From the NCBI GenBank assembly GCA_016869045.1, contig VGFC01000004.1:40-64039 (forward strand): a stretch of DNA of 64,000 bases, written 5' to 3'. Below the pieces are notes generated by a model. It saw only the letters and a program-made list of their open reading frames with translations, was not told the origin of the DNA and searched no databases. The stretch is from Armatimonadota bacterium (GTDB lineage: Bacteria > Armatimonadota > Zipacnadia > Zipacnadales > VGFC01). The translations under genes were made by a program, and so were the position numbers. Positions 3,996 to 62,782 of this stretch are shown piece after piece; position 1 is the stretch's first letter; each line of letters starts with the position of its first letter.

Positions 3996-4832
3996 ATGTC
4001 GTTCACTCGCTCCGAAGTCCTCGCCCGTCTGCGCAAGAGCATCGACGCCGGCGTCCCGATCATCGGCGCGGGCGCCGGGACCGGGATCAGCGCCAAGTTC
4101 GAGGAGGCCGGGGGCGTCGATCTCATCATCATCTACAACTCCGGCCGCTACCGCATGGCGGGGCGCGGATCGCTGGCGGGCCTGATGCCCTACGGCGACG
4201 CGAACGCCATCGTCATGGAGATGGCCGGCGAGGTGCTGACCATCGTCGAGGACACGCCGGTCCTCGCAGGCGTATGCGCCACCGACCCCTTCCGCCAGAT
4301 GGACAAGTTCCTGCAGGAGGTCAAGGCCATCGGCTTCGCGGGGGTGCAGAACTTCCCGACAGTCGGCCTCATCGACGGGCTCTTCCGCCAGAACCTGGAG
4401 GAGACGGGCATGGGCTACGGGCTGGAGGTGGAGATGATCCGCCTCGCCCGCGCGATGGACTTGGTGACCACGCCCTACTGCTTCAACGCCCACGAGGGCC
4501 GGCTGATGGCCGAGGCGGGGGCCGACATCGTCGTCGCCCACATGGGCCTGACGACCAAGGGCTCCATCGGCGCGACGACGGCGGTGACCCTCGAAGAGGC
4601 GCCCGCCAGGGTGCAGGAGATCGCCGACGCCGCGAAGGCCGTGAACCCGGACGTGATCGTCCTGTGCCACGGCGGCCCGATCTCCGAGCCCGAGGATGCC
4701 GAGTACGTGTTGCAGCGCACTCAGGGCGTCCACGGTTTCTACGGCGCATCGAGCATGGAGCGCCTGCCCGTCGAAGTCGCGATCACCGAGCACATGCGCA
4801 AGTTCAAGGCCGTGAGGTTCCGCACGCCATGA
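3996..4832 (+). CDS. phosphoenolpyruvate hydrolase-like TIM-barrel protein (Tm-1 C-terminal-domain-like)
   Basis: 278 aa, [68 protein letters not shown]. Conserved partner of UPF0261 genes. Confidence 0.65.
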
Positions 4833-6034
4833 CCGCACGCCAACGCTTCCAGGCGATCATCCGGCACGAACGCCCCGATCGGCTTCCCTACACCTTCGGC
4901 GGGCCGCGCGCCTCGACGTTCGCGGCCTGGCGCAAGCAGGGCCTCTCCGAGGAGCAGCAGGCGAACTGGCATCGGTTCGTCGGCGAGGACGGCGCCACGG
5001 GGATCGGCACGCTGGACTGCGGTTGGCGCCCGCCCTTCGAGGAAGTCACGCTGGAGATCGACGGCAACAAGCGCATCTGGGTCGACTCGTGGGGCGTCAA
5101 GCGCCTGGACGCCATCGCGCAGCCGACCGAGGGGTTCCAGACCCGCAAGTACATCGAGTTCCCGGTGAAGTGCCCGGCGGACTTCGAGGCGATGAAGCAG
5201 CGCTTCGACCCTCACGATCCCGCGCGCACCGCGAACGAGGATTGGCGCAACCACCTCGAGCGGTGCCGCGATTCAGCGGTGCCCGTCATGGTGACCGTGC
5301 CCGGGCCGTACTGGCGCACGCGCGACTGGTGCGGGTTCGAGGGGCTGTCGCTGATGGTCTACGACCAGCCGGCGCTCGTGCACGAGATGTTCGAGTTCTG
5401 GACCTGGTTCCTCATGGAGCTGCTCGACGAGCCCCTGAAGCACATCGAGGTGGATGAACTCATCACCAATGAGGACATGGCCTTCAAGGGTCAAGCGATG
5501 CTCTCCCCGGCCAAGATGCGCGAGTTCCTCGTGCCGTGCTACCGCAAGCTGTACGAGTTCCTCAAGGAGCGCGGCGTGCGGGCCGTTGTGATGGACTGCG
5601 ACGGCTACAACAACCAGATCCTCGATACGATGTACCCGGAGTGTCTCGATGGGATTCAGCCCATCGAGATCGCCGCGGGCAACGAGCCCGAGGAGATTCT
5701 GGCGCGCTATCCCGGCATCTTCATCCACGGCGGTATCGACAAGCGGGAGTTGCGCTTCAGCCGCGAGCAGGCGCGCGCCGAGGTGGCTCGCCGTTTCCGC
5801 ACCGCCCACGAGCAGGGCGGGTACATCCCGCATGTGGACCACGGCGTCCCGCCCGACATCCCCTTGCGCAACTTCCTGTACTACGTCGAGCTGGCGAAGG
5901 GCTTCGCGCGCGGCGAGGACCTGGAGACCTACAAACCGCCCTGCGAGCTGGAGCAGCAGCTTGGCCCGATCGAGGAGATGTTCGACCCCCGCCGGGCAAT
6001 CGCCCTGGCCTATGCCGACGACGACGAGCACTGA
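4829..6034 (+). CDS. uroporphyrinogen-decarboxylase (URO-D) superfamily protein (MtaA/CmuA-like methyltransferase or decarboxylase)
   Basis: ATG at 4829 overlaps the upstream TGA. About 401 aa with URO-D-like conservation to the C-terminus (…[26 protein letters not shown]…). The longer track ORF from 4274 is an out-of-frame artefact over the upstream gene. Confidence 0.55.
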
Positions 6035-9244: not shown

Positions 9245-9290
9245 AGCCAACCCGAAACTCGCAACCCGGAACCCGAGACTCCCTACCCTC
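9245..9290. repeat. family C short repeat (aacccgaaactcgcaacccggaacccgagac)
   Basis: CCCGAAAC-type heptad-like repeats in the spacer between the eda stop and the Gfo/Idh/MocA start. Confidence 0.4.
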
Positions 9291-19036: not shown

Positions 19037-19145
19037 TCACGTCTCAGGTCGCGTGTCTCGTGTCTCGCGTTTCAGGTCGCTGCCGCGCCTTGCTGGCGCC
19101 CCCTGCCGTGCAACCCGAAACCCGAAACTCGAAACCCCAAAACCA
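19037..19145. repeat. family C intercistronic module (gtctcaggtcgcgtgtctcgtgtctcgcgtttcaggtcgc … aacccgaaacccgaaactcgaaacccc)
   Basis: Direct and inverted short repeats between the GltS FMN-domain gene and the GXGXG-domain gene on the minus strand. Confidence 0.5.
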
Positions 19146-21866: not shown

Positions 21867-21985
21867 AACGACGGTTACAGGTCTCGGGTTTCGGGTCTCG
21901 GGTTACGGACACAGCCACTCCAACTGCCGCTCCGCCGGCGCCAAGTCCCGGCGGCAACCCGAAACTCGAAACCCGAAACGGCCTC
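21867..21985. repeat. family C intercistronic module: GTCTCGGGTTTCGGGTCTCGGGTT …51 nt… AACCCGAAACTCGAAACCCGAAAC (long imperfect inverted repeat)
   Basis: Read directly. On the minus-strand mRNA it lies just 5' of the GATase start codon. Confidence 0.55.
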
Positions 21986-28225: not shown

Positions 28226-28342
28226 GGGAATCCGCGATTCTCGTCCGAGCTGTTCCCGTGTAGGGGCGCGATTCATCGCGCCCGCCCATGTAGGGGCGCC
28301 ATTCATGGCGCCCAAGAACCGATACCGCGGATTCTCATACAG
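28226..28342. repeat. family A element copy 1 (MITE-like: GGGAATCCGCGATTC… two hairpin units …CAAGAACCGATACCGCGGATTCTCATACAG)
   Basis: Units tgtaggggcgcgattcatcgcgccc and atgtaggggcgccattcatggcgccc, each a 7-bp-stem hairpin with TTCA loop; ends are an imperfect inverted repeat (GAATCCGCG…CGCGGATTC). Lies upstream of the AOR gene. Confidence 0.7.
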
Positions 28343-30560: not shown

Positions 30561-30819
30561 CAGGAATCCGCGATTCCCGTCCGAGCCGTTCCCATGTAGG
30601 GGCGCGATTCACCGGCCGTTGTTGTGTAGGGGCGCGATTCATCGCGCCCGCCCATGTAGGGGCGCCATTCAGATTGTGTTGAGAAAGGGCCCCGTCAAAG
30701 GAAGAACCCTCTCCTACGCGCTCTACGTGGCTCGTAGGTCGGGATACCAATCCCGACAATGCCTTTATCAACACAATCTTCATGGCGCCCAAGAACCGAT
30801 GTCGCGGACTCCCATACAG
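30561..30819. repeat. family A element copy 2, interrupted by a nested family B MITE
   Basis: Left end CAGGAATCCGCGATTCCCGTCCGAGCCGTTCCC plus hairpin units; right end CAAGAACCGATGTCGCGGACTCCCATACAG. The third hairpin unit ggcgccaTTCA|…|TTCAtggcgcc is split by the insertion. Confidence 0.7.
30672..30778. mobile_element. family B MITE (107 bp; TIRs GATTGTGTTGAGAAAGG / CCTTTATCAACACAATC; internal hairpin GTCGGGATACCAATCCCGAC) inserted in a family A hairpin loop with a 4-bp TTCA target duplication
   Basis: Read directly. TTCA at 30668-30671 and 30779-30782 flanks the insert. Removing the insert restores the canonical unit ggcgccattcatggcgcc. Confidence 0.7.
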
Positions 30820-41763: not shown

Positions 41764-41821
41764 GGCCCCTGCTCCTTCCTTGCCTTGGGACTCCCTGACG
41801 TGTCATCGTAGGCCCACGTAT

Positions 41822-41905
41822 CTCGTAGGTCGGGATTCCAATCCCGACACTGCCTTTCAACACAATCCGTGCTCTGCCCACGGCCGGGCGCAGCACGCTG
41901 CGCCC
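41822..41905. repeat. family B partial copy plus flanking hairpin (…gtcgggattccaatcccgacactgcctttcaacacaatc cgtgctctgccc … gggcgcagcacgctgcgccc)
   Basis: Right-half MITE-B sequence and the same CGTGCTCTGCCC extension and second hairpin as the full copy at 59041. Confidence 0.55.
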
Positions 41906-58963: not shown

Positions 58964-59029
58964 AACCGTCGTCATGTACGGGCGCGATTATGGTCATGCA
59001 CAATGTGATTAGGCGGGCGTCGTTGTAGG

Positions 59030-59208
59030 GGCAGAGCGTGGATTGTGTTGAAAAAGGGCTGCGTCGAGGAAGCACGCCTCTCATACGCGCCGTACGCGGC
59101 TCGTAGGTCGGGATACCAATCCCGACACTGCCTTTATCAACACAATCCGTGCTCTGCCCAGGTGTTGCTGAACGGACGGCATGGGCAGAGCACGCTCTGC
59201 CGCTACAA
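59030..59208. mobile_element. family B MITE full copy 2 (core 59041-59147) with extended inverted flanks GGGCAGAGCGTG/CGTGCTCTGCCC and a trailing hairpin GGGCAGAGCACGCTCTGCC
   Basis: TIRs GATTGTGTTGAAAAAGG / CCTTTATCAACACAATC; internal hairpin GTCGGGATACCAATCCCGAC. Upstream (58981-59020) is a degenerate family A unit (gtacgggcgcgattatggtcatg). Confidence 0.65.
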
Positions 59209-59331
59209 CGACCCGACGATGTCAGGTTATTTCGTGCATGACCATCATCACGCCCGACGCCGTGCGTCTGATACACCCTCTGAGGCCGCACGCAGATCGT
59301 GGACGAACATCGGGAGGGGCGAGATCCTGAC

Positions 59332-60514: not shown

Positions 60515-60589
60515 GAGGGTCCGTATCGTGGGTTCCTGTCTTGGCGGAGGCCCCAATCGGGCCTCCGCTTCGGTAAACCGACACCACAG

Positions 60590-60990
60590 GCCAGCACCAT
60601 GACCTCGCGCACCACGCTCGCCGTCTTGGAGGACAGGCATTCTTGCCTGTCCCAGCCCGCCGCGTTGGAGGACAGGCATTCCTGCCTGTCCAAGCCCCCC
60701 GCGTTGGAGGACAGGCATTCTTGCCTGTCCAAACCGCACCCGGAACGTTGGGGACTGACGACGAAACCCAGCCCCATCGGGTTTCGTTGTCTGTCCCCGA
60801 AGTTGCCTTTCGCGTTCCGTCACTACCCCCGACGAGCCGACACCATGACCTCGCGCACCACGCTCGCCGTCCTGGAGGACAGGCATTCTTGCCTGTCCAA
60901 GCCCGCCGCGTTGGAGGACAGGCATTCTTGCCTGTCCGAGCCCGCCGCGTTGGAGGACAGGCATTCCTGCCTGTCCACTTGCCTGTCCAG
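60590..60990. repeat. duplicated module: 31-bp leader (caccATGacctcgcgcaccacgctcgccgtc) plus 3 x 38-bp repeats, each holding the perfect 22-bp palindrome GGACAGGCATTCTTGCCTGTCC; copies at 60590-60730 and 60837-60990, separated by 107 bp carrying a 9-bp-stem hairpin
   Basis: Read directly; six palindromes in total with unit spacing 38 bp. The array is in frame with the downstream secreted-protein ORF (peptide repeat ALEDRHSCLSKPA). Confidence 0.7.
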
Positions 60991-62782
60991 GGTCTACCGA
61001 CTGTGCCTTGGCCTACTGGCACTGACCCTCGCCGCCGCCGGGAGCGCCGATCGCCGCCTGGACTTCGCCGCTCGCGAGCGCGCGGAGGGCCCTCTGCGGA
61101 TCGGGGAAGTGACGGGCGGCGGGCAGGTGCTCATCCGCCTGCGGAGCAAGGCCGGGTCCGTCCTCCCGCGCGCCCAGAAGGCCGCCGAGGGCCTGCAGAA
61201 GGCCGCGGTTGCAGGCCTCTCGCCTCCCGCCCTGACCGTGGTGGTCGGGCCCGACGGCTCGTCGATCCTCAAAGGCGATGGGCAGGAGATTGTCACCGCC
61301 GACAAGGAGACGGCGCAACTCTCCTCCACGACCCCGACGGCTCTGGCCGCGAGCTGGCAGAGCGCACTCAACACGGTGTTCCGCGAACCCTACCTGGTTC
61401 TGTCTGAGCCGGACGGCCTCCAGGTCCCCGTGGACGAGGCGCGCTACGTCGCCTACGGCGGGCCGCTTGGGAAGCACCTCTCGGCAACCTCCGGCGACGA
61501 GGCCGTGGCGCTGGCGAAGCTGGAGCCGACGAACCGCCGCCTCAAGGTCTACGGGGCCGGTCCGGGTGACACCGCGGTCGCGCTGAAGGCGGGCGCCCTC
61601 AGCCTCGGCCTCCCGGTGCAGGTCCGCTTCTGGGCCGCGAAGATCCTCCCAACCGCCGTGGCGGAGCTAACCGGCAGCGGGCAGGACGGGCACACCGCAA
61701 CCAGGGTTGCCGTCAACGCCGCCCTCGCCGCCGCGCAGCCTCAGCCCGGCGCCACCGTCTCCGCGATCTCCACCGACCGCGAGGGGCCGCTGTTCCGTGT
61801 CGGTGTCCTGGCCACCGGCCAGGACTGCATCGACGCCAAGAGGCAGGTCGAGGTGACACTGAAGTGGGTCACGCCGCCGACCCTCGAGCCGGTGGACGTG
61901 TTCGTGAGCAACTCCCCCGAGCGCATCGTCGCCCTCGGAAGCCTCATGCGCGAGCAACTCCTCCCGGACCGTGCGGCGCGCTTCTTGTACCATCACGTCA
62001 ACTCGACGGAGCAGACCGTCCTCTTCGTTGCCCGCATCGCGAATGCGGGGCCCGGACCCGCCGCCGCGCACGTGATCCTCGGCGAGTCCGGCCCGGACAA
62101 GGACGAGTTGGGCGTCGGCCACGCCGCGGCCGCGCGGTTCTGGAGGGAGCAGCGGACCGGGAGCGGCTACGTCCTGCAGGTCCCGCCGATGACTGCCTCC
62201 GACATCGTGCGCACGCCCGTCGGGCGCGAGGCCATCGTCAGCGGCCTGGCCCAGATCACCCCGCTCTCGTCATCGCCGCTGCTCCTCGAAGTCGCCGCCG
62301 TGCCGGTCGGCCACGAGACGGAGTGGGTCGAGCCCCTCCGGCCGGAGGACTACGCCTCGCCCAAGTTGACGACCTTCCGCTTCGGTGCGCGCAAGGCCGT
62401 CGAGCTGAAGCACGAGATCGGCGGGGCGTGGACGTTCTTCAGCCTGGGCAAGGAGGGCTCGACGAACGAGGCCGGCACGTACCTGGCCGGCGACTACGGC
62501 GTCCTGCACGAGATCGACCTCGAACTCACGAACGCCCGTGAGCAGACCGGCTTCGCGGAGATGGAAGTGCGCGCGAGCGGCGGCGTGATGCGCGGGCTGT
62601 TCCTGATCGACAACGTCCTCCACGAGACCGGTCTTCTGGTCGGCACCCAGCAGGAACGGGTGCTCAAGCTGGAGGTCCCCTCCGGAGCGACGCGTCGTGT
62701 CCGCATCGAGACGATTCCGGAGTCCGCCTCCAACTACCCGGTGCACCTGATCGTCCACTCGCGGCTGCGGAACGTGCCATGA
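60845..62782 (+). CDS. hypothetical exported/membrane-anchored protein (start uncertain: ATG 60845 or 60598, both inside the palindrome array)
   Basis: Hydrophobic segment LCLGLLALTLAAAGSA right after the array, then about 590 aa of Ala/Gly/Val-rich globular sequence with no confident family match. No in-frame start codon lies between the array and the hydrophobic segment. Confidence 0.4.
   Translation: MTSRTTLAVLEDRHSCLSKPAALEDRHSCLSEPAALEDRHSCLSTCLSRVYRLCLGLLALTLAAAGSADRRLDFAARERAEGPLRIGEVTGGGQVLIRLRSKAGSVLPRAQKAAEGLQKAAVAGLSPPALTVVVGPDGSSILKGDGQEIVTADKETAQLSSTTPTALAASWQSALNTVFREPYLVLSEPDGLQVPVDEARYVAYGGPLGKHLSATSGDEAVALAKLEPTNRRLKVYGAGPGDTAVALKAGALSLGLPVQVRFWAAKILPTAVAELTGSGQDGHTATRVAVNAALAAAQPQPGATVSAISTDREGPLFRVGVLATGQDCIDAKRQVEVTLKWVTPPTLEPVDVFVSNSPERIVALGSLMREQLLPDRAARFLYHHVNSTEQTVLFVARIANAGPGPAAAHVILGESGPDKDELGVGHAAAARFWREQRTGSGYVLQVPPMTASDIVRTPVGREAIVSGLAQITPLSSSPLLLEVAAVPVGHETEWVEPLRPEDYASPKLTTFRFGARKAVELKHEIGGAWTFFSLGKEGSTNEAGTYLAGDYGVLHEIDLELTNAREQTGFAEMEVRASGGVMRGLFLIDNVLHETGLLVGTQQERVLKLEVPSGATRRVRIETIPESASNYPVHLIVHSRLRNVP

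Follow-up and report, generated by a model that had tools for sequence, protein, structure and literature searches.

The 64,000-nucleotide stretch of DNA analysed here (the window) contains at positions 30561-30819 a short repeat whose last hairpin is interrupted, precisely in its four-nucleotide loop, by a second element. This locus raises the question of what the inserted element is, how it came to lie in the loop and whether the hairpin was chosen for its sequence or for its symmetry. The AOR protein adjoining the locus has its nearest relatives in Candidatus Zipacnadales, phylum Armatimonadota. We refer to the interrupted repeat as family A and to the inserted element as family B.

Insertion of family B into a REP-like hairpin

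The features of the locus are as follows.

30561-30819, plus strand: family A composite, consisting of a head, three REP-like units and a tail
30656-30671, plus strand: left half of the interrupted REP-like unit (GTAGGGGCGCCATTCA)
30668-30671, plus strand: left TTCA of the target-site duplication, which is the hairpin loop
30672-30778, plus strand: family B MITE copy 1, subfamily B1, 107 bp, identified from the sequence read, the terminal inverted repeats (TIRs) and the site catalogue
30672-30688, plus strand: left TIR GATTGTGTTGAGAAAGG, a 17-mer with any base at position 12 that also bounds IS1182-family insertion sequences
30734-30757, plus strand: internal GTAG-headed hairpin with an 8-bp stem and a 4-nt loop
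30762-30778, minus strand: right TIR, reading GATTGTGTTGATAAAGG on the minus strand, located by the 17-mer search
30779-30782, plus strand: right TTCA of the target-site duplication
30779-30790, plus strand: right half of the interrupted REP-like unit (TTCATGGCGCCC)

Read directly, the locus runs from gtaggggcgccaTTCA (30656-30671) through GATTGTGTTGAGAAAGG...CCTTTATCAACACAATC (30672-30778) into TTCAtggcgccc (30779-30790). The unit split by copy 1 is GTAGGGGCGCCA-TTCA-TGGCGCCC, with TTCA present on each side of the element, and when copy 1 and one TTCA are taken out the result is GTAGGGGCGCCATTCATGGCGCCC, which was found intact in the window at 28290, 35657, 44991 and 60491. A preliminary description of this DNA, made from the letters alone, had proposed a 107-bp element inside a family A hairpin loop with a TTCA duplication, whose excision together with one TTCA restores the canonical unit, and the direct reading agrees with it in each of these respects. 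The two further structures that it had named were also observed: the 17-bp TIRs, which agree at 16 of 17 positions, and the internal hairpin, which reads GTAGGTCGGGATACCAATCCCGAC. Five occurrences of the TIR 17-mer, with at most three mismatches allowed, were counted in the window, where chance alone would give 0.03. No Rfam family matched the element or the locus, either at the gathering thresholds or by E-value, and no promoter or terminator was detected in scans of the copy 1 locus.

The preliminary description had also allowed for the junction being an assembly chimera, that is, a repeat-induced artefact. Chimeras do form in these repeats: the end of L116 (9054-9332, compared with L145 64-342) was observed to leave the window locus within the A+B repeat and to continue as the L145 locus, an assembly chimera caused by the A+B elements. 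Both junctions of copy 1, however, were found base for base the same in L117, an independent assembly from another sample, which runs through them into unique flanking coding sequence identical to that of the window. The left junction was reproduced in L116 and L115 as well, and therefore the junction in the window is not an assembly chimera. As dozens of independent sites have the same architecture, an artefact at copy 1 is scarcely credible.

Family A and the REP-like hairpins of the host

The head of family A carries a TIR, GGAATCCGCGAT, at 30563-30574, followed by REP-like units at 30596, 30626 and 30656, and its tail carries on the reverse complement the mate TIR GGAGTCCGCGA at 30802-30812, with 10 of 11 positions matching. 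An uninterrupted paralogue is located at 28231-28338. Family A is a MITE-like shell in which its own TIRs surround two to three REP-like units. The units are 24-nt, G+C-rich, extragenic imperfect palindromes headed by GTAG, with a 4-nt loop on an 8-bp stem, arranged in tandem arrays of 28-bp period and elsewhere as inverted pairs. Twenty-two intact GTAG units were counted in the window, and among the 174 loci scanned the family A units were confined to contigs of the host organism. We also noticed a strand bias, with 20 of the 22 intact units lying on the plus strand of the window. Other repeats noticed in the window are two blocks of tandem 39-bp repeats in a long ORF (60551-61016) and runs of CCCGAAA-like heptamers (9247-9286, 19110-19135 and 21954-21979).

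These hairpins resemble those of REP/REPIN-RAYT systems, which are likewise short G+C-rich GTAG palindromes, extragenic, of high copy number and arranged in arrays and inverted pairs, and a RAYT-like gene with sibling REPs on either side is present in the host. The RAYT-like ORF (L120 5193-5879, minus strand, 228 aa) has HUH-like (HLH) and YWEH motifs, and its best match is NF047646 (REP-associated tyrosine transposase) with E = 8e-16 and 58 bits, which is below the cutoff of 80. In contrast to REP/REPIN systems, family A forms mostly tandem, one-strand arrays of 28-bp period within a shell that has its own inverted repeats, and the REPs flanking the RAYT-like gene are of the GTAGGGGCGGAC class (GGCGGAC class) and not of the family A class. 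The loop of one of these flanking hairpins contains a family B copy. The family A hairpins are REP-like, while their link to a RAYT is only partly shown. As a separate observation, the RAYT-like gene contains a REP pair in frame within its own coding sequence (VGADPRVRP...WVRPY).

The internal hairpin of family B, GTAGGTCGGGAT.CCAATCCCGAC, was observed to occur alone with short conserved flanks and without TIRs in L119, L151, L130/L163 and L150. In L119, a hemW/hemN-like ORF (4443-5576, minus strand) has such a lone B-type hairpin in frame at 4967-4996, and the same in-frame hairpin is found in L151, which comes from a different sample series (Ga0233423).

Other copies of family B in the window

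Family B is a small, non-coding, multi-copy element of 107 bp that is represented in the window by four copies or fragments. Besides copy 1, the relevant features are the following.

59041-59147, plus strand: family B copy 2, subfamily B2, in the loop of GTAGGGGCAGAG-CGTG-CTCTGCCC
59037-59040 and 59148-59151: CGTG duplication of copy 2
59183-59206, minus strand: intact hairpin, same type as the host of copy 2; a paralogous unit holds a B1 element in L123, L125 and L133
20681-20734, plus strand: family B right-end fragment, followed by CGTGCTGCGCCC (hairpin right half)
41816-41867, plus strand: family B right-end fragment, followed by CGTGCTCTGCCC (hairpin right half)

Copy 2 is identical to copy 1 at 96 of 107 positions. 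The preliminary description was right that a second full copy is present here but wrong in placing it in a different context, as copy 2 also lies in the loop of a GTAG hairpin (gtaggggcagagCGTG / B / CGTGctctgccc), of another sequence and with CGTG duplicated. Both right-end fragments lead directly into CGTGCT(GC/CT)GCCC, the right half of the copy-2 hairpin class. All four family B right ends in the window (two full copies and two fragments) abut a hairpin loop, and the loops of the 22 intact units make up about 88 of the 64,000 bases. L123 and L125 were considered as the occupied allele of the empty hairpin at 59183-59206, which was ruled out because their outer flanks differ, making theirs a paralogous copy.

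Copy 2 is itself contained in another small element, family C, at 58990-59245 of the window. Family C has 12-bp TIRs (ATGGTCATGCAC and GTGCATGACCAT) and lies exactly between the TT and the CA of a REP loop (gtacgggcgcgaTT / ... / CAtcacgccc), without a target duplication. It contains two inverted GGCAGAGC hairpins, one of which hosts copy 2, and further copies of family C were noticed in L125.

Target sites of family B in the metagenome

A scan of the metagenome with the B core returned 48 contigs, all but two of them from the Ga0194110-Ga0194113 series, and Ga0194111-113 are the three sample sets that also carry the AOR locus of the window. The site catalogue was anchored on the TIRs and comprises 28 distinct full-length sites of the host organism, as tallied from the listing. 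The TIRs are conserved in all full-length copies. A perfect 4-bp duplication was observed at 21 of these sites, whereas three of four bases agree at two sites and at most two of four at the other five. By sequence, the perfect duplications are TTCA/TGAA (14 sites), TCCA (2), CGTG/CACG (2), ATGG (1), GTAT (1) and TCCC (1). The most plausible reading of the seven sites without a perfect duplication is that they hold older copies or arose by recombination between copies. At four B cores (L154 2749, L123 3424, L128 1493 and L124 4691) the flanks are not direct repeats; as an example, the copy in L154 lies between TTCA (left) and TGAA (right). The flanks at these four look like the result of recombination or inversion between B copies.

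The flanks of family B form the two halves of one GTAGGGGC-type hairpin at 24 of the 28 sites, and at one more site they form an imperfect palindrome without the GTAG head. The duplication is centred on the hairpin dyad or at most one base off it, and both arms are retained. Relative to B, the hairpin points one way at 14 sites and the other way at 9. The arms vary by site (ggcgcca, ggcacga, ggcgcga, ggcagag and ggcggac), with left and right arm varying together at each site, and therefore the arms are part of the target and not of the element. Insertion was observed to tolerate different arm and loop sequences. Two sites with a perfect duplication lie outside recognisable hairpins, namely the TCCC site and an ACTC site on a diverged copy that is not among the 28, and so the hairpin preference is strong and not absolute. 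The preliminary description had suggested that a catalogue of target sites might reveal a preference for TTCA and hairpin loops. The loop preference is borne out by the 24 of 28 sites but TTCA itself is not required, as TCCA, CGTG/CACG, ATGG and GTAT are also used: the preference of family B is for the hairpin dyad, not for the TTCA sequence.

The hairpin halves could alternatively be the outer part of an element with a longer TIR, so that no insertion into a pre-existing hairpin took place. The flanks are indeed mutually inverted, and copy 1 and its flanks together form a single long hairpin when folded (-43.8 kcal/mol, z = -10). Against this, the arms change with the site, in agreement with the hairpin class found there; a GTAG head is present at only one flank, which may be either flank of B; the four bases adjoining B are direct and not inverted repeats; and the units obtained by reconstruction do not differ from intact units that are abundant. 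We consider a longer TIR highly improbable and regard the hairpin as the target.

Two family B subfamilies were distinguished, which are identical to each other at 96 of 107 positions. At 14 sites or more, the copies are identical to either subfamily at no fewer than 104 of 107 positions (at least 97%), and perfect duplications are present at 11 of the 14 sites with near-identical copies. Near-identical copies at so many sites indicate recent transposition of family B. The earlier proposal of recent transposition with a 4-bp target duplication therefore stands; it had named the lack of 4-bp repeats at other copies as evidence against itself, and the 21 perfect duplications among 28 sites show the opposite.

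A 64-bp element at L126 (11877-11940) has family B TIRs around an unrelated core without a GTAG hairpin. It is located in a REP loop, between a TTCA and a TCCA. Because this element shares only the TIRs with family B and also lies in a hairpin loop, the TIRs and not the core define mobility. The same element bears on whether a RAYT, instead of a DDE transposase, mobilises family B in a REPIN-like manner through the internal GTAG hairpin, which we consider very unlikely. The idea draws on the presence of that hairpin in B and its occurrence alone without TIRs, including in frame in ORFs, and on the RAYT-like gene flanked by REPs in this organism. Single-strand transposition of the Y1/HUH (IS200/IS605) type, however, is not known to leave a target-site duplication or to need TIRs. 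Family B has both, unlike Y1/HUH products, and its sibling in L126 inserts likewise without any GTAG hairpin.

Assignment to the IS1182 family

A DDE transposase of the IS1182 type is suggested by the ends of family B. The family B 17-mer GATTGTGTTGANAAAGG, in the terminal form GATTGTGTTGA(G/A)AAAGG, bounds at least ten elements of 1512-1573 bp in Alpha- and Gammaproteobacteria. These relatives were taken from a scan of a genome collection with the 17-mer, among the matches listed, which were mostly chance single matches and did not include the host genome. One of the elements, in L058, contains an ORF (483-1607) that reaches 319 bits, above the cutoff of 270, against NCBIfam NF033551 ('IS1182 family transposase') and also carries Pfam DUF772 and DDE_Tnp_1; the proteins of the other nine 1.5-kb elements are 52-89% identical to it. 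The L058 element has GGCT duplicated, and perfect 4-bp target-site duplications were observed for at least 14 full-length or MITE-size (138-219 bp) elements with the 17-mer among the matches listed. Since its 17-mer ends and 4-bp duplications are as in IS1182-family elements, family B is an IS1182-derived MITE. A tblastn search of 513 kb of host contigs, a partial sample biased towards B, with the L058 transposase gave nothing below E = 0.68. A weak transposase match in L119 was rejected as it falls inside a lepA-like gene.

The targets of the proteobacterial elements (14 sites, L001-L114) have a symmetric consensus, G(-10) N C(-8) N G(-6) ... GGCC ... C(+9) N G(+11) N C(+13), and their symmetry is strongly enriched (5.9 against 3.6 complementary pairs of 14). 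Perfect stems at these 14 sites are of the same mean length as at random positions (2.9 in both cases, P = 0.71). Hairpin targeting as a trait of the whole TIR group was dropped for this reason, the proteobacterial sites having only a degenerate symmetric consensus.

Published IS1182-family elements share several of these features. ISPse1 of Paracoccus was experimentally trapped with a 4-bp direct repeat, according to the passage describing that insertion (PMC3281130), and one of two ISMac2-related MITEs of 160-169 bp in Methanosarcina acetivorans is listed with a direct repeat of 4 bp in the entry given for it (PMC3852290). As far as these passages go, family B is like such insertion sequences and MITEs in the 4-bp duplication and the MITE size class, and it shares the 17-mer with IS1182 elements. 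It differs from them in its host, which belongs to the Armatimonadota, and no autonomous partner was seen in the host contigs. The near-exclusive use of REP-like loops is a property of family B that the passages on ISPse1 and the ISMac2-related MITEs do not mention (PMC3281130, PMC3852290).

History of the locus

Relatives of the host were compared at the gap between ThiS and the cytochrome gene. Those with an AOR 84-86% identical have a gap of 40 bp with neither A nor B, and those with an AOR at least 90% identical have a spacer of 118-147 bp of unrelated sequence, again with neither A nor B. Judged from this comparison, the presence of A+B at the ThiS-cytochrome locus is specific to the host lineage. 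No orthologous allele with A and without B was found among the relatives in these two ranges of AOR identity. When the reconstructed empty sites with 250-bp flanks were searched by BLAST against all host contigs, paralogous repeat arrays were the only matches. The empty units observed are paralogous, namely 28231-28338 and the unit at 59183-59206 as compared with L123/L125. In L175, a co-occurring strain with an identical LpxD, the lpxD locus shows intact REP units at the place taken in the window by the nested element with copy 2, and a different, truncated B lies nearby. As L175 and the window differ at this locus, repeat content varies from strain to strain.

The family A subfamily that hosts copy 1, with its GCCCAT spacer, is also found in L145, where B again occupies the last unit. 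Over 197 bp, L145 and the window agree at 96% of positions, and a single base separates their B copies. The preliminary description had dated family B as later than family A at this locus. Because L145 has A+B in the same unit, the dating at the copy 1 locus is weakened and only partly safe; the A+B composite may have moved as one piece. B would then have entered family A elsewhere, and the composite would have been moved or copied to 30561-30819 by means of the family A terminal repeats. The shared unit and close similarity of L145 are consistent with such a move, and so are the terminal inverted repeats that family A owns (GGAATCCGCGAT and its tail mate) and the finding of the family C composite with B copy 2 inside at more than one locus. 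The copies are not equivalent, however, as family A has three units in the window and two in L145. Furthermore, B was found repeatedly and independently in this type of unit (L137, L146 and L154, with different outer flanks), and since B targets that type repeatedly, two hits in it are expected anyway. We regard a composite move as unlikely.

Proposed mechanism of target capture

Taken with the IS1182-identical ends, the evidence makes it very probable that family B is an IS1182-derived, non-autonomous MITE which was inserted by a transposase supplied in trans at the dyads of REP-like hairpins with duplication of the 4-nt loop. In the proposed mechanism, a DDE transposase of the IS1182 type, supplied in trans, would bind the 17-bp TIRs and integrate the element at the dyad axis of short G+C-rich palindromes, which would be the GTAG-headed hairpins of family A and of sibling classes. 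The target strands would be cut 4 bp apart, leading to duplication of the 4-nt loop with both arms kept. We infer that an IS1182-type enzyme acts in trans in the host and captures a twofold-symmetric target, which it may read in duplex form, as a symmetric site, or after extrusion as a hairpin or cruciform.

A more tentative suggestion is that the transposase might read a short palindrome by its shape or twofold symmetry and not by its sequence, in which case REP hairpins would serve as structure-defined landing pads. We bring this forward as a possibility because the dyads of at least five hairpin sequence classes are hit and because family C, an unrelated small element, uses the same loops without duplication.

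Palindromes are known as targets of some IS1182 members, among which IS1272/TnSha1 uses hairpin targets that have no primary sequence consensus (PMC4923244, PMC5678879). These staphylococcal elements are like family B in targeting hairpins with 9-12-bp arms and a 4-6-bp spacer, in both orientations and without a sequence consensus. IS1272 causes no duplication and removes or replaces part of the inverted repeat that it targets, whereas B keeps the arms and duplicates the loop (PMC4923244, PMC5678879). Target replacement of the IS1272 type was not observed for B, the arms being kept and the loop duplicated at 21 sites.

Other insertion sequences also use REP units, including IS1397 and ISKpn1, which belong to the IS3 family. 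These two, together with ISPsy8 and ISRm22, resemble B in entering REP units at a fixed point, and ISPsy8 and ISRm22 insert at the REP symmetry axis with direct repeats of 3 or 6 bp (PMC1525189, PMC3184786). ISPsy8 is an IS3-family and ISRm22 an IS4-family element (PMC1525189). These REP-targeting insertion sequences are autonomous, while family B is a non-coding IS1182 derivative with a 4-bp repeat. REP units are landing sites also for elements of the IS110/IS1111 type such as IS621, ISPpu9/10 and ISPa11 (PMC1525189, PMC11208160), which rely on an RNA-guided DEDD recombinase. Elements of the IS110 type have no identifiable terminal inverted repeats (PMC11187229), and direct repeats are absent for ISPa11 and of 2 bp for ISPpu9/10 (PMC1525189). 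In contrast, family B has TIRs and 4-bp duplications, which sets it apart from the bridge-RNA elements of the IS110/IS1111 type.

Significance

Family B combines three published behaviours, namely the use of REPs as insertion sequence targets (PMC1525189), the palindrome targeting of the IS1182 family and the 4-bp repeats of IS1182-derived MITEs. It is a clean natural example of a MITE that is near-exclusive for REP-like hairpin loops, and it comes from a little-studied phylum, the Armatimonadota. Such nested repeats cause breaks and wrong joins in metagenome assemblies, of which L116 is an example, and as they differ between co-occurring strains they could serve as strain markers.

In addition, family B links loop targeting to the IS1182 family, whose palindrome targeting is documented. 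Two variants are now seen within this family: the hairpin survives insertion of B, with its 4-nt loop duplicated, but is replaced by IS1272 without any duplication, and this contrast is useful for dissecting target capture. If shape recognition is true, the more than 25 natural sites of family B would offer a direct way into the question of how a DDE transposase recognises a target in cruciform or hairpin form.
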